DNA of 64,000 nt from a virus: IMG/VR virus record IMGVR_UViG_3300033145_000692, positions 1 to 64,000 of that record; one strand, given 5' to 3'. This document shows, piece after piece, positions 1 through 58,425 of this stretch (positions are counted from its first letter, which is position 1; each line of letters starts with the position of its first letter). The notes beneath the pieces were generated by a model. The model was given only the letters and a program-made list of their open reading frames with translations. It made no database searches and was not told where the DNA came from. Both the position numbers and the translations under genes were made by a program.

Positions 1-389
1 GGCAGCCGTTCCTCGATCTTCGGTGACCTTAGGGCTCTCGCGTGGTTCACGTCGACCAAACCCTCACGCTGGGCGAAGACCAGGAAGCTCCGGAGAGCCG
101 CCAGCTTCCGCCCGATCGTGGCGGCGCAGTACTTCCGCTGATATAATGACTTCAGGAAGGCTCGCAGGTCTCCCATCGTGATCTGGTCCACGTCAACATT
201 ACCAAGGAAGTCAACAAGGTCTTGGAGGTCCTTCTGGTACGCCACGATGGTGTGCTTGGATGAGTTTCGCTCCACCCGTAGGTAATCACTGAAGTCATCA
301 CTGACTTTGGTGATACCTCTACAGGAGGGCTTGCTCTCCCCAAACAAGCTGAGCGTCGGTCGGGCTTCAAGTGCGAGTGCTGTGCTCAT
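1..389 (-). CDS. xerC: Tyrosine recombinase XerC/XerD family, N-terminal part (runs off the window edge; absent from ORF track)
   Basis: Manual translation from ATG 389: ...FSDYLRVERNSSKHTIVAYQKDL...DLRAFL...ATIGRKLAALRSFLVFAQREGLV...LRSPKIEERL, the typical XerC/D core-binding domain. Confidence 0.85.
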   Translation of the reverse strand, partial: MSTALALEARPTLSLFGESKPSCRGITKVSDDFSDYLRVERNSSKHTIVAYQKDLQDLVDFLGNVDVDQITMGDLRAFLKSLYQRKYCAATIGRKLAALRSFLVFAQREGLVDVNHARALRSPKIEERL

Positions 390-501
390 AGTCGACTTCT
401 TCATTCGGGCATCTTGTCAAAGAATCTTGTCAAACAGCTTTATCAGTAAGAGAAAGCTGCCACTATGGGAGCTAGGCAACCAAGAACTGTTGTGATGGTC
501 A

Positions 502-777
502 TCATTTTGTCATCTTCTTCCGCTTAGCTGTTTTTCGCTTGGCTGTCTTCCGCTTGGCTGTCTTTACTGGCTTCGTCTCGGGTTCCTTGGCGACAGTCTT
601 CTTTCTTTTCGTCTTGACATCACAGGTCCAGTAGTTGGGTAAGTGTCCCCACCTCTCGGTCCTCTCCAAACCTTCCCGATCTTCCTCAGCTTCAGGCTTC
701 GTCTCATACGGACCACAGTCTTCCGACTCTGGCACCTCAGTGACCCACCATTCACTACCTCGTTTGACTGACTTCAC
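502..777 (-). CDS. Hypothetical protein with Lys/Arg-rich C-terminal KTAKR repeats
   Basis: ORF overlapping the upstream gene by 4 nt; 15-bp tandem repeat at 521-565. Confidence 0.7.
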   Translation of the reverse strand: MKSVKRGSEWWVTEVPESEDCGPYETKPEAEEDREGLERTERWGHLPNYWTCDVKTKRKKTVAKEPETKPVKTAKRKTAKRKTAKRKKMTK

Positions 778-1241
778 GACTGTAACCTTTTTGTGTGCAT
801 CGACTCCGTGAGATTGTTTGCTACCCAGAGATTGGTGTACCCTTTGTCATGTAGGAAGCTTAGGATTTTCATAGCATCTTTATCGCAAACTTTCCTACTG
901 AAGGCGACACTCCTACCGGGGTAGGCGGCACAAGCTTCCTTATCGTTGAGACACCAGCAAGTGCAGAGTGCGAATTCATCCCCACCACGTTCCTCCGGCA
1001 GCAGGGCAAAGAGCCCATCCTCATCTTCTCGGAGTAATACCGGCTGCCTAACGTCCAGCCCAGAGGCTTCTTGAAGCCTACCAAGGACATGAGACAGCCG
1101 ATCAACTGCCATCCCCTGTCGTGACTCTTTTTCGCTTACAACTCTTCTTGCAAAGTCTCTCATCCTCATCGGATTCATTGTATCTCGCTTCCAGGCAATG
1201 CCAGTGATAGACTACAGCGATGGGTAGCTCGCTTGTTTCAT
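774..1241 (-). pseudogene. Hypothetical gene with probable leaderless ATG (1241) and in-frame TAG at codon 10 (1212-1214); the downstream part 774-1178 is open
   Basis: MKQASYPSL*SITGIAWKRDT-MNPMR is in frame; the ATG sits at the same position after the -10 box as in the leaderless MTase gene. Confidence 0.55.
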
Positions 1242-1247
1242 ACTACA

Positions 1248-1275
1248 AGTCTACCACACTCTGAGTGGAAGTCAA
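1248..1275 (-). promoter_or_regulatory. Sigma70-type promoter with extended -10
   Basis: TTGACT-N16(ending TGG)-TAGACT followed by TGTAGT-ATG. Confidence 0.7.
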
Positions 1276-1337
1276 GCACAAATTAGCCAAATGTCGAAAT
1301 AACCCAGCAGATGGCTCTGACGTTTTGAAGTATTCGA

Positions 1338-1676
1338 TCAAAGCATTTCCTCCGGTGGCGACCAGGCGAGAAGACTTGGGTAGACGTAGGACTCAAAGAG
1401 TTGGACCTTCTGCGTTTCGTTGGGGGTAACCTCGGGTGGGGCTTCGCCGGTGCCTTCACCACCATGTTCAATCAGTACGGCATGTGACAAGTCGCTGTCT
1501 ACTTGGTACAAGTGGTATTTATCCTTAACGCTCTCGAAGAATTCTCTTGCAGTTTTCTCGTCTGCCCAGGTATAGATGTGTCCGGTGCTATTCTGAACGA
1601 ACACAAAACTTCCACCAGAGACCATTCCAAAAGCAAACATACTCAACCTCCTAATTCTTCCAAGATGTCTTTCCAA
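1338..1676 (-). CDS. Hypothetical protein
   Basis: ORF in the co-oriented run; start uncertain. Confidence 0.6.
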   Translation of the reverse strand: MERHLGRIRRLSMFAFGMVSGGSFVFVQNSTGHIYTWADEKTAREFFESVKDKYHLYQVDSDLSHAVLIEHGGEGTGEAPPEVTPNETQKVQLFESYVYPSLLAWSPPEEML

Positions 1677-2080
1677 TCGGTACGAATGTCATCTATTACG
1701 TGTGGCTTGTCACGGTATATGCCCATCTCAATCATGAGTGCTTCAACCTCTTTCTGATAAGGTCCATCCCATATTGGCTGTGGGTCTGGATCGACATCAT
1801 CTCCATGAATGAGAGTGGTAGCCCCTGGGAAGATGGTCTTGTACTGTGCAATCGCGGCTGCCTTCAACCTGTCCTCGGAGAAGAACTTGCCGATCTTCTC
1901 CCCGGCTTTGTACTTTGCTTTAGCTGGTAATACCGTCCGTCGATTGAACCGATCGGCTTCCGACTGGGTGATTTTATCTTCCAATTCGACCCGCTTGCTA
2001 CCACAGGTTATCCACCCATAATAGTGCTCCCATCCTGTCCCCCTGTCCCAGTAGTACACTTCACAGTAGACTATCAACAT
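1643..2080 (-). CDS. Hypothetical protein
   Basis: 145-aa ORF overlapping the end of the upstream gene. Confidence 0.7.
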   Translation of the reverse strand: MLIVYCEVYYWDRGTGWEHYYGWITCGSKRVELEDKITQSEADRFNRRTVLPAKAKYKAGEKIGKFFSEDRLKAAAIAQYKTIFPGATTLIHGDDVDPDPQPIWDGPYQKEVEALMIEMGIYRDKPHVIDDIRTDWKDILEELGG

Positions 2081-3498
2081 GCCACCTCAACGAAGCAATC
2101 AATTATGAATTGCTGGAAATCCCGGCTGTTATCCGTTGCCCCGGTGATATAGTGGACGACTTCTTCCAGAGCTATCTTGAGCCCGAACTTACCCTCGGTG
2201 ACATCTTCCCTGATGTAGACGGTACCGTCCTCGTAGTATCCCATCGTCTCTGCCTCAGCGGACATCATGTCCCGGTAGCAGGATACGGGCGGCTTGTCCT
2301 TCCCCTGGGTCATCTCAATGTCTTCCAACCAGCCCCACACCCTGTCTACCGCCTTGACGGCTGCATCAGACGCCTGGGTAACCTTTCGACCTTTCATCTC
2401 ACCATCGGTCAGAACAGCCTCTGAAGTTTTCACGCCAAACCTCTGTGATAGGCCAAACCAATTGTCCGACTTGATTTCCTTGACGGCGAACCCTTTACGG
2501 GACACGAACTGATTCGTGTTGGATTGGTCTTCATTGCAAAGGATTGCCCCACCGGAGGCTAGGTCCCAGGCATCCTTCCAGGTCTGCTTCTCAGCCTCGT
2601 TTGGTGTGTCAAAGGAAGACAGGACGTAGTAGGAGTCGATGTTACCCTCGAACGTGTCAACACCTTCGATGAGTTGTCTGTAGATGGTCGCCAGTTGACG
2701 GACATTGGCTTTCCGAATCAACTTAGAGCACGCCGCACGTGTGCTGTACTCACTACTGTTCCGGCACTCGTCGATTGACAACTCATCAGGGGTGAAGTTG
2801 TAGTCAAACAGGCTAGGCGCGATACTATCGCTGATCTCACGAACCAGGACGCCGTTGCGGTAGATCATCGGAGTCTTCCGCTCAGTCAGGTTCCGATCCG
2901 CTTTGGGGAGAATTGAACTGTAAACCCGCTGTGGGTCCCTTGAGAAGTGTAGAAATCTCTTGGGAAGTTCACCATAGAACGTTTGCACCTCTTGGGTGAA
3001 CTCGATGAAGATTCGAGTGAAGTCGACTCTGGCTCGCACCCCAGCCTTATCGACTGGAATGACACATAGGTCACCACTCTCCATGGAATCGAGGAACTCA
3101 CCTCTTTCACGGATGGTACGATCCAAAGCGTTGGAGATAAACTCCCTGATCGCCATGGATGTTACATTCCAGTCAATCGACCCGAAGTCCAGACACCAAC
3201 CGCAGTCGATTGTTTTGGTCGAGGTACCACCGAACTTACACATCACATGCTTGATTGACTTCTCGACCAGACCATCACTGACGGTACGGGTTTCGGTGTA
3301 GAAGTGTAGGCGGGTTTTTCCGCAGTAGATGAAGAATTCCAAACCTGCACGTAGCAACACGTTGATGGCGTGCTTGGAACCCGAACCGAATTGACCAATA
3401 GTCCCTTTAACCCCACTGTCGCGGGTGGTGGACATCCCCAAAATGGTGTAGCCCTCTATAGGTGCTTCGCCGGGGTTCTGGATCATCAAGTACTGCAT
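2074..3498 (-). CDS. GHKL-type ATPase (MPN635-like) with C-terminal zincin-like domain
   Basis: IGQFGSGSKHA glycine loop, AIREFISNALD (ExxxNxxD), C-terminal ALEEVVH...GATDNSRDFQ; AAGGAG RBS before ATG 3498. Confidence 0.7.
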   Translation of the reverse strand: MQYLMIQNPGEAPIEGYTILGMSTTRDSGVKGTIGQFGSGSKHAINVLLRAGLEFFIYCGKTRLHFYTETRTVSDGLVEKSIKHVMCKFGGTSTKTIDCGWCLDFGSIDWNVTSMAIREFISNALDRTIRERGEFLDSMESGDLCVIPVDKAGVRARVDFTRIFIEFTQEVQTFYGELPKRFLHFSRDPQRVYSSILPKADRNLTERKTPMIYRNGVLVREISDSIAPSLFDYNFTPDELSIDECRNSSEYSTRAACSKLIRKANVRQLATIYRQLIEGVDTFEGNIDSYYVLSSFDTPNEAEKQTWKDAWDLASGGAILCNEDQSNTNQFVSRKGFAVKEIKSDNWFGLSQRFGVKTSEAVLTDGEMKGRKVTQASDAAVKAVDRVWGWLEDIEMTQGKDKPPVSCYRDMMSAEAETMGYYEDGTVYIREDVTEGKFGLKIALEEVVHYITGATDNSRDFQQFIIDCFVEVAC

Positions 3499-3531
3499 GT
3501 TGTGCTCCTTATTGTGTTGACTGTTACTACA

Positions 3532-3560
3532 ATCATACCACACAATTGGTGATTTGTCAA
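3532..3560 (-). promoter_or_regulatory. Sigma70-type promoter with extended -10
   Basis: TTGACA-N17(ending TGG)-TATGAT. Confidence 0.75.
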
Positions 3561-3575
3561 ATGAAATCTTCAGAT

Positions 3576-4037
3576 TTAGTTGGCGAGGTCTTCCCAGGGA
3601 GTACCACAGGTTGCGCCAGGTACCGAGTATGCGACGGCACATGTCCGACCAGGGTACCACAGAGCTTGTACCGGGTTGATGGTCACCTCCAGATTCCACC
3701 TCTCACTGAAGGAAACGATATGTCTGATGTCGGTGTAACTCAGTCCATAAGGCTGAGACAGGTAGACGATCGGAAGGCATTTTTCACAGAATACCAATCG
3801 CCCATGGTCATCGGCTGGCGGTCTGTGGGGCATCATTGCAGGCTGTTTTGACTTCGACAGCAGGTCTCGGAGGTTGCCATGGTTCGTAATGTACAGACCC
3901 AGTACACGGCAGGCTTCCTCCCGAAGATTGCATACAACCTCCCCGGCGACTCTGACTGCCCTTGCTGCCCCCAACTCCAAGAGGTCTTGCGCAAGCTGCT
4001 TTTCTTTCTGTGTGGCGTTGCCGAGGATATTTGCCAT
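3576..4037 (-). CDS. Hypothetical protein (DDHGR...YLSQPYG...WYP family), intact paralog of 4313-4792
   Basis: ORF with RBS; clear similarity to the neighbouring paralog. Confidence 0.75.
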   Translation of the reverse strand: MANILGNATQKEKQLAQDLLELGAARAVRVAGEVVCNLREEACRVLGLYITNHGNLRDLLSKSKQPAMMPHRPPADDHGRLVFCEKCLPIVYLSQPYGLSYTDIRHIVSFSERWNLEVTINPVQALWYPGRTCAVAYSVPGATCGTPWEDLAN

Positions 4038-4045
4038 GACGTTCC

Positions 4046-4234
4046 TTATACAAAGATGTATTTTAGAACAAGATACCCACCACCAACGAAGAAGATCAAT
4101 CCAAACACGATGTGTGCGAGCATATTGATCTCGATATATTGATATGAGTCACCAACGGTATAGCACAATGTACCTATGACTGCACAGTATACGAATATAA
4201 ACGCTAGTACGAATTTGACGATGTTGTTCATCAT
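4046..4234 (-). CDS. Small two-TM membrane protein
   Basis: 62 aa with two hydrophobic stretches; lower GC. Confidence 0.65.
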   Translation of the reverse strand: MMNNIVKFVLAFIFVYCAVIGTLCYTVGDSYQYIEINMLAHIVFGLIFFVGGGYLVLKYIFV

Positions 4235-4815
4235 GCTGCCTTTTGTAAGATGTCTACACGATCATGTCCAATGGGCACCAACCCAATTGGTCTATTAGGT
4301 TTGTCCCGTTACTCAATAAGGTACATACCCCCAGGGTGTATCCTTAGTTATCATACCCTTGGCGTAGTAAGTAATGCCACATGTTTTCGATGGGTACCAC
4401 AGAGAATGGGCCGGGTTGGAACCCACATCGAGACCCCACCGGTCACAGAAGTCTGCGATCTCCCTGAAGTCTCCACTAGCTAAACCGTATGGTTGTGACA
4501 GGTAACATATCGGCTTCCCTTTGAACCGAACCATCCTCCCATGGTCATCCCTAGGTGGGTGGTCAGGGATATCTCGACGTTCTAAAGATTTCACCGGGAA
4601 CAAATAGCCCAACGGATCAACAGTAAGGGTGATGCCACCATCGAAGTAGAACCCCTCTCGAAGCTTTCGTCATACAGCACTAGCGATAGATGCCGCGCTT
4701 CCCTTGTCAATTTTCAGAAGATGGTTGGCTAAGGCTTGTTCTTCTTTGGTGGCATTTGGAATAAAATTCGGGACCAGATATTTATTCATCATGCTGCCTT
4801 TTGTAAGATGTCTAC
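4227..4815. repeat. 31-bp direct repeat (4227-4257 and 4785-4815)
   Basis: ttcatcatgctgccttttgtaagatgtctac is identical at both sites; it encodes ...VDILQKAA* plus the ATGA start of the next gene. Confidence 0.9.
4313..4792 (-). pseudogene. Paralog of 3576-4037 interrupted by in-frame TGA (4670-4672)
   Basis: NATKEEQALANHLL...SAV*RKLRE aligns with NATQKEKQLAQDLL...GEVVCNLRE on both sides of the stop. Confidence 0.8.
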
Positions 4816-5022
4816 TCGGTTGTTACTTCGGAGACCCACTAGGGGGTCAATACGGTTTATCCAATGCCGGACTAAGATTGTTCGCCCATAGTACTTCCGG
4901 AAGCCATAACAACGGCTTCCCTGTACAACATCAACGTAGTCCACCCAATAGACGCCAGGGTCCATCTCTGGCAGAGTCTGTTACCCAATGACTTCAATCT
5001 TGTCTCCCTCACTTAGTCTCAT
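4789..5022 (-). pseudogene. 77-codon hypothetical gene interrupted by in-frame TAA (4981-4983)
   Basis: MRLSEGDKIEVIG*QTLPEMDPGVYWV...DILQKAA; the start abuts the upstream stop and the end overlaps the next ATG (ATGA). Confidence 0.7.
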
Positions 5023-5211
5023 TCAATGTCCTCTCACTGTAGCTATGGCAATTCCATCATCGACACGCATCGACCATAGTTGCCATTTTCGTTTCAGTAT
5101 GTCCGCAAGCTCGTTAATGGTGATCGGTGGGTCAAACTTTTCAACCGGTAAAGCCGGTCTGCCATTGGTCCACATCTCCCGCGTGAACTATATGATGGCT
5201 TCACTCACCAT
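5023..5211 (-). pseudogene. Paralog of 5201-5422 interrupted by in-frame TAG (5188-5190)
   Basis: MVSEAII*FTRE...KFDPPITINELADIL vs MIEHVKLQL...KIMPPITEAQLRAAL. Confidence 0.65.
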
Positions 5212-5422
5212 CGGCTTCGACCTCATTTGGCTCAGGGTATGTCACGAGGACCTCGGCGTCGTTATCAACAACTACGAGAGACATGATAACGAACTCCTGC
5301 TCCAAAGCGGCACGTAACTGAGCTTCGGTTATTGGGGGCATGATCTTCCGTTCAGCGGTGTGGAGGAACACTTCGACCTTGGGATCATCATCGTGAAGTT
5401 GTAGCTTGACATGTTCGATCAT
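5201..5422 (-). CDS. Hypothetical protein
   Basis: AAGGAG RBS before ATG 5422. Confidence 0.65.
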   Translation of the reverse strand: MIEHVKLQLHDDDPKVEVFLHTAERKIMPPITEAQLRAALEQEFVIMSLVVVDNDAEVLVTYPEPNEVEADGE

Positions 5423-5433
5423 CTTGTAGCTCC

Positions 5434-5676
5434 TTAGGTATACTGGTACGGAAAAATTTTCTTGTAGTATTCCCTGCCCGGGTGTGGTGGTACTGGCGTT
5501 TGCAGCCATTCCATTATGTCAAATGCCCCTGACCTTACCAACTCTTCAAAGCAGTCATCACAGATGTGCCCATAGTGGACGTTGTAACGATCACCTCGTA
5601 TGCTGTCACACCCAACTTTAACACATGGCATCCCACCCATCGTCTCCCCCTTGTCTTGTGCTGCCCCAGATTTCAA
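5434..5676 (-). CDS. Small Cys-rich (zinc-binding) hypothetical protein
   Basis: CxxxxC...CDDC. Confidence 0.6.
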   Translation of the reverse strand: MKSGAAQDKGETMGGMPCVKVGCDSIRGDRYNVHYGHICDDCFEELVRSGAFDIMEWLQTPVPPHPGREYYKKIFPYQYT

Positions 5677-6065
5677 TCACCTCGGGCGTGTTGTAGTAGG
5701 CGGTCAGCAACGTCTCTTAGGCTGAGAAGCTTCTCCCACTTCATGTAGTGGGTGGTGCCACCGACGAAATCCTTTCGACCATTGCATCTCTTGAACATGA
5801 AGCCGATGTCTCTGGAGAAGCTGGATATTTCAAACTTGACACAGAACGTTTGGGTGTGCATCACTGTCACCCCGGGTCCTACCTCCTCGCCTTTGTTGGT
5901 CCACATGTCATACTCTGAACGATCCAAGCCAATGTGCTCGGCAAGTACCCGTATGACTCGGCGAGCTAACCTATGCCATCTGTCCTTGGCAGTCTCATCG
6001 TTGTTAAGTTCACCACATTTCGCAGTGAAGATGAATTCCTTCAGACTTCTGTTTGCAATGGGCAT
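5673..6065 (-). CDS. Hypothetical protein
   Basis: ORF in coupled run. Confidence 0.7.
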   Translation of the reverse strand: MPIANRSLKEFIFTAKCGELNNDETAKDRWHRLARRVIRVLAEHIGLDRSEYDMWTNKGEEVGPGVTVMHTQTFCVKFEISSFSRDIGFMFKRCNGRKDFVGGTTHYMKWEKLLSLRDVADRLLQHARGD

Positions 6066-6547
6066 ACAGTCTCCAGTTTGTTGACCAGTTTGTTGGTGGC
6101 TTTTTCAATGTCCCGGTGACGCTCGGCTGCTTTGGTCCAGGCGTCCTCGTCATCGACATTGAAGTAGTGGAGCATCCACCCGTGTTTCTGGGAGAATTGT
6201 ACTCCGGTGTCCTCACGGTGTCGACATGACTTCTTCGTCCACCTGTGTCTGGATATACCTCCAGTACATGTTGAAGTCTGGTGGACACGTTTGGTCAATA
6301 TGATCTGCTTGGGGACGTACGCCTCGGGATACTTCACACCCCTCTCATCTACTTGATCACCCCTATGGGAGAGAAAGATCAGTACCTTGTAGGGACCATC
6401 TTTCTCATCGGAACCCTGAAGCCCACTGGGTCCAAACCTTTTGAACGCTTCGGTGTAATCGTCCTCCATCCCAATAGGGACTTCACCAGCGTACTTGAAT
6501 ATCCTGTGACCGTAGACTGGTATGCTGACGTAGTAGTGATTCTTCAT
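6041..6547 (-). CDS. Hypothetical protein
   Basis: ORF in coupled run (ATGA overlap). Confidence 0.7.
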   Translation of the reverse strand: MKNHYYVSIPVYGHRIFKYAGEVPIGMEDDYTEAFKRFGPSGLQGSDEKDGPYKVLIFLSHRGDQVDERGVKYPEAYVPKQIILTKRVHQTSTCTGGISRHRWTKKSCRHREDTGVQFSQKHGWMLHYFNVDDEDAWTKAAERHRDIEKATNKLVNKLETVCPLQTEV

Positions 6548-8751: not shown

Positions 8752-8780
8752 AGTATAGCATAAAAAATGGAGGTTGTCAA
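8752..8780 (-). promoter_or_regulatory. Sigma70-type promoter for the ECF sigma operon
   Basis: TTGACA-N17(ending TGC)-TATACT. Confidence 0.8.
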
Positions 8781-12969: not shown

Positions 12970-13368
12970 TCAACGATTGTCGCCATCCCCCTTCAGAGTA
13001 CCCCTCTCTTGACGGCTGGCTAATTTATCAAGATTCTCTTGCGCGACATCTTCCAAGTCAATTCCAATATCGTAAGCAAGTGCCGCTACATACCAGCAAA
13101 TATCACCTATTTCGGAGGCAATAGCGGCTTTCCGCTCTGGTGTCAAGATTCCATCATCATCCCTCAAGATTTTCTTAACCTGGTTAGCGACCTGTCCTGT
13201 GTGACTGGCTAACATTAGTGTATCCCTTCGAGTCGCCGGGCATTTGACATCGGCAATCTTCTCAGCTAATTCGCCAACTTCCCCACTGAGACCTAATGCA
13301 GGGTAAGTAATCTTGTCCTTGTAGATAGCAGTCTTGATAGCAGCTGCTTGGTATTCATTGAGATTCAA
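12970..13368 (-). CDS. mazG: MazG-like nucleotide pyrophosphohydrolase
   Basis: EYQAAA, LGLSGEVGE, EIGDICWY, ENLDKLASR...GDGDNR. Confidence 0.85.
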   Translation of the reverse strand: MNLNEYQAAAIKTAIYKDKITYPALGLSGEVGELAEKIADVKCPATRRDTLMLASHTGQVANQVKKILRDDDGILTPERKAAIASEIGDICWYVAALAYDIGIDLEDVAQENLDKLASRQERGTLKGDGDNR

Positions 13369-13729
13369 TTTGAAGCTCCTTTCTCTTTGTGATTATAGCT
13401 TGCCTAGCTTCTTCAATGGTATCAAAATGACCAAGACGGTATCTCTCGCCATCAATTTGAAATTCAGCGTTGAATTTATCACCATGGGGTGAAACACCTT
13501 TCACACTTGTTTGGGAATTTCCTTGCGCCGAGTCAATATGTCGTGGACCTTTAATATGCTTCCAACATACACCCAACCTGATATCCCCAATATGTCCCCG
13601 TGATAATCCATAACCATTCTTGGTACTTCCAGTCCATTCTCAGCAGTCATCAAAACCCTTCTTGTCAACTCTTGACCAGAAGAATGTAATGTCACTTTCT
13701 GTCAACTCTGGTATAGGCAAATGTTTCAC
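13355..13729 (-). pseudogene. Degenerate HNH-AP2 homing endonuclease (HNH core lost; TGA at 13640-13642 replaces a conserved Trp)
   Basis: MKHLPIPELTESDITFFWSRVDKKGFDDC*EWTG...GYG followed by AP2-like KGVS...RLGHFDTIEEA. Confidence 0.75.
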
Positions 13730-14283
13730 TAGGGTGTCCAAAGCTCCCCATTGAAGAGAACCTCAAAGACAAGATCGGGGTCTTCGCCAAAGACTTCGCC
13801 ATCCTCGAAAAGTTTCCCGTCGTAGTACACCCGCTCGACACCACCCTCTTGCAACATCATGTCCCCAATGTCGATTGACTCTTGCCAGCGGGCAGGTGTT
13901 CGATCGAACGTGGAGATGTGACCGACCACCCTCTTGATGCCAGCACCGATGATCGCTCTGGCACAGTCAGCACAGGAAAACCAGGGTGCATACATAGTCG
14001 CACCTAAGGTTGTGATACCTCTCAAAGCAGCCAAGAGAATACAGTCTCGCTCAGCGTGTTCGATATAGAGATACTTGTTAGGTCGGACGGTACGTCGTCG
14101 CTCGGTTACCTTTACCCCTTTCGGGAAGTGATTGACTCCGAAGACAATCTGACCTGAGTTGTTAGCCGGTACCAGGACGGCACCACACTGAGTACTCAGA
14201 TCGTCACTAAAGTCGCGAGCGTTCCGATAGGCTGTGCGAAGCCAGTCTCGCGTGTCGAAATCCTGGTAAGTTTTATCACCCAT
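13729..14283 (-). CDS. dCMP deaminase
   Basis: TQCGAVL, EHAERD, PWFSCADCARAIIGAGI. Confidence 0.9.
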   Translation of the reverse strand: MGDKTYQDFDTRDWLRTAYRNARDFSDDLSTQCGAVLVPANNSGQIVFGVNHFPKGVKVTERRRTVRPNKYLYIEHAERDCILLAALRGITTLGATMYAPWFSCADCARAIIGAGIKRVVGHISTFDRTPARWQESIDIGDMMLQEGGVERVYYDGKLFEDGEVFGEDPDLVFEVLFNGELWTP

Positions 14284-14579
14284 CAAAGAACCTCCACTGT
14301 GATCCGTAACTTGGTCTGACGTGTCTTGACAGGGACACCTTCCTCCGGTCGCATCCCTTGAGATCGCATCTTGTCGAGCGTGTCAAATATCTCGTCGAAT
14401 TCCTCGTCAGTCGGGAAGCCAAGTTCATCGGTGATCTTGGTCTCCAATCTTGGTTGCTCGCCAATGCGATTGGGGTCTGCATCCGGATCAATGATGAGGA
14501 CATGCTTTGAGTTTTGTTCGTCGGCAAAGTAAGCTAGGGTGAAGTCACCCTCGATAACAAATTGTGTCGTCTCAGCCAT
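14283..14579 (-). CDS. Acidic hypothetical protein
   Basis: AAGGAG RBS; coupled to the dCMP deaminase. Confidence 0.7.
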   Translation of the reverse strand: MAETTQFVIEGDFTLAYFADEQNSKHVLIIDPDADPNRIGEQPRLETKITDELGFPTDEEFDEIFDTLDKMRSQGMRPEEGVPVKTRQTKLRITVEVL

Positions 14580-40196: not shown

Positions 40197-40261
40197 GTTT
40201 CGTCCTCCGTTAAGACAGCCCATAGGATTCACCTACAGGCTGTCGGTGTCATTGTCGTTTG

Positions 40262-58005: not shown

Positions 58006-58275
58006 TTAGCCAACAAATTCTTCACGTGGAATCTGAGTCGTCGCTGCCTTGGACGCCTCCGAGGTCTCCCAGAGGTATACTTCGTTGTTAAGCCACCGGG
58101 CAATTACCTTCTTAGCCCACACGCTAGGAGCAAATTTCGCAATCATTGGATGCCCTTCTTCTAGGGGGTCTCCATCCCACTCTGGGTCTAAGATCTGTGG
58201 GCATGGGTACTTTCCATTAAGAGCAACAACAAAACGGACTGCTTTTTCGTCGGGGATATTCAACGGGATAATCAT
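58006..58275 (-). CDS. Hypothetical protein (tail-fibre associated)
   Basis: AAGGAG RBS. Confidence 0.65.
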   Translation of the reverse strand: MIIPLNIPDEKAVRFVVALNGKYPCPQILDPEWDGDPLEEGHPMIAKFAPSVWAKKVIARWLNNEVYLWETSEASKAATTQIPREEFVG

Positions 58276-58305: not shown

Positions 58306-58425
58306 CTAAAATCGGCCGGCGTTACGGATCGTGAGTTTATCCAGGTAGTCAGCCCACGCGGCGCTATTGGAACCAGACGCAACAAGAAGCTGGTTGTCAG
58401 CAGTGGGGTCGCCATAATCGTTCAT
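58306..58425 (-). pseudogene. 39-aa remnant resembling a tail-fibre N-terminus
   Basis: AAGGAG RBS; DNQLLVASGSNSAAW..L..LT resembles ENYVLVADVSGNGVW..L..LT in the fibre. Confidence 0.4.

Follow-up and report, generated by a model that had tools for sequence, protein, structure and literature searches.

The locus and its genes

The window described here covers the first 64 kb of an IMG/VR viral contig of 100,907 bp, which derives from an uncultivated phage. Three adjacent small genes on its minus strand, designated c1, c2 and c3, are consecutive, translationally coupled accessory genes with unassigned functions (Table 1), and they appear to belong to a transcription unit that starts at a promoter-like site at approximately 8752–8780. 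Each carries a single in-frame stop codon. A preliminary description had read this part of the window as a cluster of coupled genes broken by one stop apiece; every stop codon that it claimed is present where it was placed, and the reading stands for c1, c2 and c3 but falls for two further intervals, 774–1241 and 4231–4326.

Table 1. Features of the c1–c3 region and of the HNH remnant (window coordinates)
Feature	Coordinates	Strand	Description
c1	5023–5211	−	62-codon gene, TAG at codon 8 (5188–5190)
c2	4789–5022	−	77-codon gene, TAA at codon 14 (4981–4983)
c3	4313–4792	−	159-codon gene, TGA at codon 41 (4670–4672)
37-nt direct repeat, copy 2	4782–4818		spans the c2 stop/c3 start overlap
c2-like 3′-end remnant	4234–4308	−	matches the c2 C-terminus (..NRPIGLVPIGHDRVDILQKAA)
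37-nt direct repeat, copy 1	4224–4260		95% identical to copy 2
Intact c3 paralogue	3576–4037	−	153 aa, 280 bp downstream of c3
Gene stub	1243–1341	−	full gene 122 aa in L011, 200 aa in L008
Start of truncated small CPxC ORF	1212–1241	−	frame shifted into TAG 1212–1214
c4 proper	774–1178	−	intact 134-aa gene; homologues start at the equivalent Met
Decayed HNH/AP2 homing endonuclease	13355–13741	−	TGA at 13640–13642, core missing

Homologues were drawn from the metagenome contigs L008–L012 and from a set of proteins including P0154–P0156. Elsewhere, megablast of window positions 500–6500 against 50,697 phage records returned zero matches, and tblastn with the DNA polymerase gave nothing closer than Vibrio phage matches of ~20% identity. 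Scans of IMG/VR with the 475-aa protein encoded next to the c3 paralogue, with the paralogue itself and with proteins P0001 and P0002 found no relatives, and a profile scan of IMG/VR gave a single match, 42% identical, in a 436-kb phage lacking c1–c4. No match was found in GTDB genome contigs, so that this search pointed to no host and no prophage copy. An 18-mer conserved in c2 had five matches in IMG/VR, all due to chance; a word-index protein search with c3 had none, and neither Pfam nor PHROGs matched c1, c2, c3, c4 or the intact homologues of these genes. The c1–c3 alleles themselves are recorded on no contig but this one. To gauge the chance level, ATGs coupled to the preceding gene with exactly one stop in between were counted in a crude gene call for the whole contig; only 1 of its 146 genes showed this arrangement, and the call did not include c1 and c2. 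A codon-usage scan for additional genes broken by a single stop lacked specificity, since antisense frames gave high scores too.

One premature stop in each of three coupled genes

The start of c1 overlaps the stop of the upstream gene at 5201–5509, and the identical ATGGTGAGTGA overlap is found in L012. The L012 homologue of c1 reads MVSEVIVQFTRRMW, is 71% identical across residues 1–62 and has CAG (Gln) at the TAG codon, while the L010 homologue has GCT (Ala) there. The N-terminus (MVSE..) is kept in relatives, so the sequence before the stop is homologous coding sequence and not an untranslated leader. Full-length homologues that have a sense codon here bear out the description of c1 as a gene broken at codon 8. 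The claim that its TAG aligns with Gln holds for the L012 orthologue, but the paralogy between c1 and the gene at 5201–5509 on which it had been based is not significant (E 0.66) and was dropped.

The c1/c2 junction TGAATG is conserved in L012, and the c2 ATG at 5022 is preceded, at a distance of 6 nt, by GAGAGGA. Homologues of c2 in L010 (82% identical), L012 (76%) and P0154–P0156 are each exactly 77 aa long and all begin M[RK]L.[EA]GDKIEV[IV]G. At the TAA codon they have D, N or E, encoded by GAT or AAT in relatives and present as Glu in P0156. Here too, full-length homologues with a sense codon confirm the break. In L011, c1 is absent, and c2, which is joined to the gene upstream of it, contains two stops as well as a tandem duplication of 22 nt; this contig has deleted c1 and degraded c2 independently.

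For c3, an alignment to the paralogue at 3576–4037 extends across the TGA (E 2.5e-29), and a profile search of protein-cluster representatives gave 277 matches at E <= 0.001, with a length of ~150 aa for most among the 150 matches listed. This family and the intact paralogue confirm the break at codon 41. Leu occupies the TGA position in the nearest relatives (TTA in L009, TTG in L008), and the N-terminal pattern MMN..NF..NAT.EE is conserved in relatives or the paralogue. In addition, c3 carries Ser at a site where Gly is present in at least 90% of the 62 family members aligned. The paralogue adjoins the gene for the 475-aa protein, which is the position of the single copy in relatives, and it is 56–60% identical to those copies in L009–L012 and 51% identical in L008. 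Its AF2 model has a pLDDT of 91.6. Comparison of the c3-family AF2 model with the PDB gave no convincing fold match by Foldseek or VIA-align (best Z 4.5), and the best match in BFVD (E 1.4e-3), to an uncharacterised protein, was likewise unconvincing.

Homologues of all three genes share their N-termini, and none starts after the stop, so the starts proposed for c1–c3 are real. Relative to these intact homologues the three stops are genuine interruptions, and they are absent from every relative compared, which makes them specific to this lineage.

Deletions and recombination remnants nearby

The remaining intervals proved to be lesions of other kinds. The interval 774–1241 had been taken for a gene broken by TAG, but 774–1178 is intact, and the ATG at 1241 starts a separate small CPxC ORF. 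Intact versions of this ORF, of 58–59 aa and in a different frame, occur in L011 (13273–13452) and L008 (3698–3874), with differences mostly at third codon positions. In this phage the ORF is truncated by a 34-nt deletion, seen as an alignment gap against the relatives. Across the relatives compared, the sequence upstream of the TAG is not homologous coding sequence of c4; the upstream extension of the 136-aa c4 homologues of L008 and L011 is itself interrupted by a stop, located at another codon. The neighbouring stub retains ~12 homologous codons (..ALIEYFKTSE..) before the promoter, and its similarity stops at window position 1314, equivalent to L011 12925. The claim that no frameshifts accompany the stops is thus correct inside c1–c3 but not in the wider region.

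The interval 4231–4326, described as a weaker one-stop case, is not a stop-bearing gene: it represents the 3′ end of a c2-like gene, left behind by recombination. Its homology is confined to 4234–4308, and the ATG at 4326 is out of frame and lies within the end of c3. The pair of 37-nt repeats flanks a 558-bp unit containing c3 and the c2 remnant. Further away, the HNH remnant lacks ~90 residues of the catalytic core, and its TGA lies opposite the conserved Trp of a CW.W motif, as had been proposed.

Such a setting bears on whether the stops might be errors of sequencing or assembly, or else low-frequency variants in a metagenome consensus. The record is one metagenome-derived contig, and the 39-aa c3 fragment P0022 (an IMG call) is found on this contig only. 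Set against this, three stop-creating substitutions in 520 bp with zero indels would in our assessment be an atypical error pattern, and the adjacent deletions and remnants are evidence of true degeneration of the region in this lineage. An artefact is very unlikely.

Mutation types and constraint after the stops

The preliminary description had offered a cytosine-deamination scar as one common cause, with all stops reachable by C:G>T:A change. Formally all are, but homologues back such a change only for c1 and for the HNH remnant, where the position of the TGA at a conserved Trp codon indicates TGG>TGA. In c1 the ancestral change was likely CAG>TAG. The codons of relatives at the other two positions (GAT, AAT or Glu for c2; TTA or TTG for c3) do not fit, and the changes there were probably GAA>TAA and TTA>TGA, respectively, although ancestral codons are not certain because the relatives are only 47–82% identical. 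On these probable codons the mutation types are mixed, without a uniform deamination signature, and a shared scar is not supported.

Constraint downstream of the stops was assessed through a three-taxon dN derived from pairwise dN, for c1 and c2 only, c3 being without a close orthologue. On the branch leading to this genome dN is ~0.044 for c1 and ~0.055 for c2, not above the values on the branches of the relatives, and pairwise dN/dS for the two genes is 0.08–0.23. No decay is therefore visible downstream of the stops, and neither gene has further stops or indels. Since the amino-acid branch leading to this genome is not lengthened for c1 or c2, the stops would be recent, which argues against long neutral decay; unchanged constraint fits inactivation only if this happened very recently.

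Recoding, readthrough and restart

In-frame stops could in principle be read as sense, by stop reassignment, by selenocysteine insertion at TGA or by RNA editing at all three positions. Only the stops themselves speak for this. They are of three different types, one each, with no recurrent in-frame type. The genetic code is standard, as ORFs of 839–1464 aa, long essential genes among them, run without in-frame stops, and natural stop usage comprises 69 TGA, 51 TAA and 28 TAG. ARAGORN, run on the whole 100.9-kb contig, predicted tRNA-Thr, tRNA-Asn and tRNA-Met only and no suppressor tRNA. Selenocysteine at the c3 TGA was considered and rejected: the aligned residues are L, V, I, S or A and never Cys (Val35 in the paralogue, with Cys one column later), and there is no SECIS-type hairpin. 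The 65 nt 3′ of each stop fold no better than shuffled sequences (z 0.23, 0.62 and −0.08; 0.23 for c3). With the stops absent from relatives as well, recoding or editing is barely credible. The same observations, namely stops missing in relatives, no stimulatory fold and no suppressor tRNA, count against the reversible switching by readthrough or A-to-I editing that the preliminary description had entertained.

A subtler possibility is that the genes are attenuated and still functional, the 5′ portions of c1 and c2 having become short upstream ORFs followed by restart at codon 13 (ATG at 5173–5175) and codon 20 (ATG at 4963–4965), and c3 being expressed weakly through UGA readthrough. In both c1 and c2 the stop lies just 5′ of a Met found in every homologue, a placement with a joint chance of ~0.05 by our own estimate, and constraint downstream is not visibly relaxed. 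Both c3 (UGA-C) and c2 (UAA-C) have C at +4, whereas c1 has UAG-U, which is a strong termination context. Against restart, the lost N-termini are conserved in relatives, the c2 motif MRLxEGDKIEV[IV]G nearly invariantly; the restart codons of c1 and c2 have gained no Shine–Dalgarno sequence; the nearest restart in c3 is a TTG at codon 61, 20 codons downstream of the TGA, without a Shine–Dalgarno sequence; and, as noted, no stimulatory structure follows the stops. Attenuation of this kind is unlikely, although truncated c1 and c2 products from the downstream Met are possible.

Probable loss of function in an accessory module

Weighing these observations, we favour with some confidence the explanation that c1, c2 and c3 each recently acquired one loss-of-function nonsense mutation in a dispensable accessory module. 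Ordinary pseudogenisation, which the preliminary description had kept as a fallback, matches the surroundings best, because a frameshifting deletion, the loss of a gene and a scar of recombination all fall within the same 4.5 kb, and because L011 has independently wrecked c1 and c2. The lesions nearby include the 34-nt deletion, the gene stub, the c2 remnant with its 37-nt repeats and the HNH remnant. The intact c3 paralogue and the loss of c1/c2 in L011 point to a dispensable module. Each gene would have gained its nonsense codon in this lineage, and it is plausible that the early stop in c1 broke the translational coupling to c2 and c3 and so relaxed selection on both. That function was lost, in what order and how recently is what we infer from these comparisons. 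Besides the unlengthened branch of c1 and c2, two features count against simple gene loss: all three lesions are nonsense changes in the first quarter of the gene, with no indel, and a conserved in-frame Met lies 4–5 codons past the stops of c1 and c2.

An alternative is that the knockouts were selected, one or more of the c1–c3 products being sensed by a host defence or otherwise costly, and the nonsense alleles having swept. Three single nonsense changes in adjacent genes with few accompanying replacements would fit, since by our own estimate, which takes ~1 nonsense change per 20 replacements under neutrality, 2–3 neutral nonsense changes would be expected together with tens of missense changes. 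There is laboratory precedent in phage Bas11, which escapes CapRel(SJ46) through a W43* premature stop, promoter mutations or deletion affecting a 66-aa hypothetical protein (10.1101/2024.05.10.593582). However, c1–c3 are ORFans without a Pfam or PHROGs match, an assigned host or an assigned defence system; the enrichment argument is weak (P roughly 0.05–0.2, own estimate); and the intact c3 paralogue would presumably still be sensed. Selected knockout is possible, if somewhat improbable. That the stops are adaptive, whether by silencing a defence-sensed module or by lowering the output of N-terminally shortened proteins through termination–reinitiation, is doubtful.

Under the preferred reading of recent gene loss, the region offers a natural snapshot of phage accessory turnover through nonsense changes, deletions and short-repeat recombination, with the L011 relative representing a later stage of c1/c2 decay. 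It also matters for annotation: gene callers would report truncated ORFs here without revealing that there are three interrupted genes, that an apparent "extension" belongs to another ORF and that an apparent "gene" was left behind by recombination. If the stops were selected, c1–c3 would be candidate triggers of host defence; if they were adaptive through reinitiation, they would work as a natural "dimmer" for all three coupled genes simultaneously.

Comparison with known systems

Stop-codon-recoded phages resemble this locus in having in-frame stops in phage genes. In those phages, however, a single type of stop appears repeatedly across many genes, most of them late, which is not the case here, and they usually encode suppressor tRNAs or release-factor changes, neither of which is seen in this phage.

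The lacI and rIIB genes provide the classical examples of restarts after early nonsense codons. Pseudo-pseudogenes share with the present genes an early stop followed by a close in-frame AUG, and two of the stops here have C at +4; in Salmonella, nonsense pseudogenes are translated at a low level, with C favoured at +4 (PMC9122581). Unlike those cases, the restart sites in c1 and c2 are without a ribosome-binding signal, and the third gene has no nearby restart.

Defence escape offers another parallel. Gp54 of Bas11, lost in escape from CapRel SJ46, is likewise a small hypothetical accessory protein removed by a premature stop (10.1101/2024.05.10.593582), and deletion of the same gene in other lineages is a further likeness to defence-escape knockouts. 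The Bas11 mutants came from a laboratory selection imposed by a known defence, whereas c1–c3 are known from sequence alone.

As in other single-nonsense pseudogenes of bacteria and phages, a lineage-specific premature stop lies in a conserved frame with intact orthologues in relatives, other decay is found nearby and one copy is redundant with a paralogue. What sets this locus apart is that there is as yet no detectable excess of amino-acid change, and that three consecutive coupled genes have each been interrupted once, in the first quarter, by stops of three different types.

Premature stops in three adjacent genes

The most likely reading of c1 (5023-5211), c2 (4789-5022) and c3 (4313-4792), adjacent small genes with one premature stop each, is an ordinary and recent inactivation within an accessory region that turns over quickly. 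No close relatives of this phage were found in phage, IMG/VR or GTDB collections. Syntenic relatives came from JGI metagenome contigs, scanned with an alignment of the closest c3-family members; the family itself was gathered by an exhaustive profile search with c3 and its intact paralogue as queries (277 matches at E <= 0.001, most about 150 aa among 150 listed). On the short contigs L010 and L012, c1 and c2 are accompanied by a single family gene and the beginning of the 475-aa gene that neighbors the paralogue. L011 represents 20 kb out of a 68-kb contig and is collinear with the window from 12.2 kb to base 1, with amino-acid identities of 55-80%; the scan also returned L008 and L009. Relatives have a single c3-family gene, directly after c2.

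The in-frame stops of the preliminary description were all found where it had put them. The c1 homologue of L012 (MVSEVIVQFTRRMW..) is 71% identical across all 62 residues, and its overlap with the upstream gene (ATGGTGAGTGA) is identical to that of this genome. At the codon that is TAG here, L012 reads CAG. Hence c1 starts at 5211, and the TAG at 5188-5190 is a genuine early stop that a single C>T change would make from CAG; as had been proposed, it stands opposite Gln in L012. L010 has Ala there.

The c2 homologues of L010 (82% identical) and L012 (76%) and the database proteins P0154-P0156 share a length of exactly 77 aa and the N-terminus M[RK]L.[EA]GDKIEV[IV]G, with Asp, Asn or Glu at the TAA position. 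Since P0156 has Glu in a matching context (..VVGEQTVPEM.. versus ..VIG*QTLPEM.. here), GAA>TAA would be the simplest origin of the stop. A GAGAGGA sequence lies 6 nt upstream of the c2 ATG at 5022. Only a handful of c1 and c2 homologues occur among 5.8 billion proteins, and neither gene matched Pfam or PHROG.

The paralogue aligns over the c3 stop from residue 3 to 148 (E ~1e-29), and close family members are all full length. Opposite the TGA stand Leu (TTA in L009, TTG in L008), Val or Ile in nearer relatives and Ser or Ala in a more distant clade. A maximum-likelihood tree placed c3 in a separate lineage of the family, not as a recent duplicate of the paralogue. The family comprises widespread uncharacterised phage proteins with the motifs PPxDDHG, YLSQPYG and W[YF]PG.T, and has no Pfam or PHROG family. 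A confident AF2 model (pLDDT 91.6, pTM 0.85) predicts two long N-terminal helices followed by an alpha/beta domain with nearly invariant residues (P74, D77, H78, P96, Y97, L116, P129, G130); it had no convincing structural match in PDB or BFVD. At one position c3 has Ser where at least 90% of 62 aligned members have Gly.

Genome setting and other lesions

The window takes up bases 1-64000 of an IMG/VR viral contig of 100,907 bp, which is classed as linear and ~98% complete; GC content is ~49%. Almost all genes from ~47.6 kb down to 0.5 kb are on the minus strand, including ribonucleotide reductase with HNH inserts, DNA polymerase, helicase, ligase and exonuclease. Judging from promoter-like positions on that strand, c1-c3 appear to belong to a transcription unit beginning near 8752. 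The contig opens within a XerC/D-like integrase gene and lacks the C-terminal half of that gene; nothing in the whole contig corresponds to residues 132-310 of the L011 homologue. Downstream of the integrase, L011 continues with further phage genes (HNH endonuclease, Dam-like methylase), not host DNA. Direct repeats of low complexity (CCACCCACCACCTAC.., CACACTATCAGGTGT..) close the contig.

Coordinates of features in the window and in related contigs
Feature	Position	Strand	Remark
Sigma-70-like promoter	8780-8752	minus	
Sigma-70-like promoter	3560-3532	minus	
Sigma-70-like promoter, weaker	1275-1248	minus	
37-nt direct repeats	4224-4260 and 4782-4818		bracket 558-bp unit (c3 plus c2-like remnant)
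c2-like 3'-end remnant	4234-4308		25 codons; in 558-bp unit with c3
Intact paralogue of c3	3576-4037		
Predicted membrane protein gene	4046-4234		62 aa; between c2 remnant and paralogue
Small CPxC ORF	L011:13273-13452; L008:3698-3874		remnant at window 1212-1241
Gene upstream of CPxC ORF	L008:3051-3653; L011:12874-13242		200 aa and 122 aa; ~12-codon stub here
HNH remnant	13355-13741		matches HNH endonuclease families
dCMP/cytidine deaminase gene	13729-14286		Pfam PF00383, E 2.9e-13; directly upstream of HNH remnant
MazG-like pyrophosphohydrolase gene	12970-13368		neighbor of deaminase gene
Integrase gene	1-404		
Low-complexity repeats	100,600-100,907		contig end

The region carries lesions of several kinds beyond nonsense codons. 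The 558-bp unit with its flanking repeats bears the mark of recombination between related phages. A weaker candidate of the preliminary description, 4231-4326, proved to be the c2-like remnant, its ATG lying out of frame inside the c3 end. The membrane protein (MMNNIVKFVLAFIFVY..), whose first codons derive from the 37-nt repeat, is absent from all relatives fetched.

Likewise, 774-1241 had been read as a single gene with a stop. In fact, 774-1178 is an intact 134-aa gene, the upstream "extension" in L008 and L011 has its stop at a different codon, and the ATG after the promoter opens a distinct ORF of 58-59 aa that is read in another frame (M[KR]QAICP[IL]CEKPVGPYRP.A.VYHWS.LK.KCDE..). By our reading, most differences between its two copies fall at third codon positions, a pattern suggestive of coding. 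In this genome a loss of 34 nt removes the CPxC motif and moves the ORF onto the downstream gene's frame and into the TAG. The ORF overlaps the next gene's start by ~80 nt in another frame; in L011 it would be nearly leaderless, because it begins 6 nt past the -10 box, and in L008 an inserted AAGGAG precedes it. The longer L008 copy of the upstream gene has an apparent internal duplication of a ..VPDEW[FV]..LGYE.. module.

The HNH remnant lacks ~90 residues, the catalytic core, relative to the 260-aa L011 copy. As had been proposed, its TGA stands opposite Trp, the first of FW..VDK.G.DCW.W. The adjacent deaminase and MazG-like genes belong to nucleotide metabolism, and nothing indicates that they mutate DNA.

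Mutation, recoding and restart

A cytosine-deamination scar had been offered as one origin of the stops, but the inferred changes are of mixed type (C>T in c1, G>T in c2, T>G in c3, G>A in the HNH remnant) and therefore argue against a single such event. Reversible switching by readthrough or editing had been another. In Salmonella, stops of this sort are known to be read through at low levels (PMC9122581). None of the relatives shares the stops of this phage, folding of the 65 nt after each is no better than in shuffles, and the contig carries no suppressor tRNA, its tRNAs being Thr, Asn and Met only. Three different stop types occur once each, long genes run without in-frame interruption, and no Cys stands opposite the c3 TGA. 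As far as sequence can show, recoding is excluded. In a crude codon-usage scan, in-frame minus-strand stops at 40233-40235, 58006-58008 and 58306-58308 had open coding-like sequence on both sides; these may be ordinary gene boundaries.

Translational restart is conceivable because a conserved Met follows the early stops by 4-5 codons (codon 13 in c1, codon 20 in c2), giving products without the first 12 and 19 residues, respectively. Yet the segments lost are conserved, no ribosome-binding site has been gained at either Met, and c3 lacks a nearby restart codon.

Recent decay, polarity or selected knockout

The suggested dN/dS check downstream of the stops was run for c1 and c2 and gave no excess of decay: pairwise values against L010 or L012 were 0.08-0.23, with dS saturated. 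Three-taxon dN branches to this genome, computed from pairwise values, were ~0.044 (c1) and ~0.055 (c2), no longer than those of the relatives, and by our count the c2 of this genome alone departs from an otherwise invariant residue at 3 positions, versus roughly 4-8 for the relatives. Because branches are not lengthened and unique replacements are few, either the stops would be very recent or the downstream parts still constrained.

In L011 the same process is seen further along. There c1 is missing, and the upstream gene (5201-5422 homologue) forms an in-frame fusion with what is left of c2 (fusion at L011:9560-10010); the c2 part contains TGA, TAA and a tandem duplication of 22 nt (CTGGTCAGACA x3). 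Since L011 has lost c1 and degraded c2, the c1-c2 module is dispensable in this phage group, and the intact paralogue backs up c3. Polarity is a further option: the stop at c1 codon 8 would uncouple translation of c2 and c3, which could then drift.

Nonsense makes up about 1 in 20 non-synonymous changes, a rough estimate under which two to three nonsense codons with so few replacements are mildly surprising (roughly P 0.05-0.2, itself rough); that no indels occur is likewise mildly surprising. On these grounds, c1-c3 may conceivably be selected knockouts. Three real nonsense-broken genes and the HNH remnant stand from the preliminary description, although two of its cases were misread, and ordinary recent inactivation remains the favored reading. 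Nonsense gene loss of this kind is already known, and selected knockout has its own precedent in a phage that escapes a defense system when a 66-aa protein is deleted or acquires a premature stop (10.1101/2024.05.10.593582).
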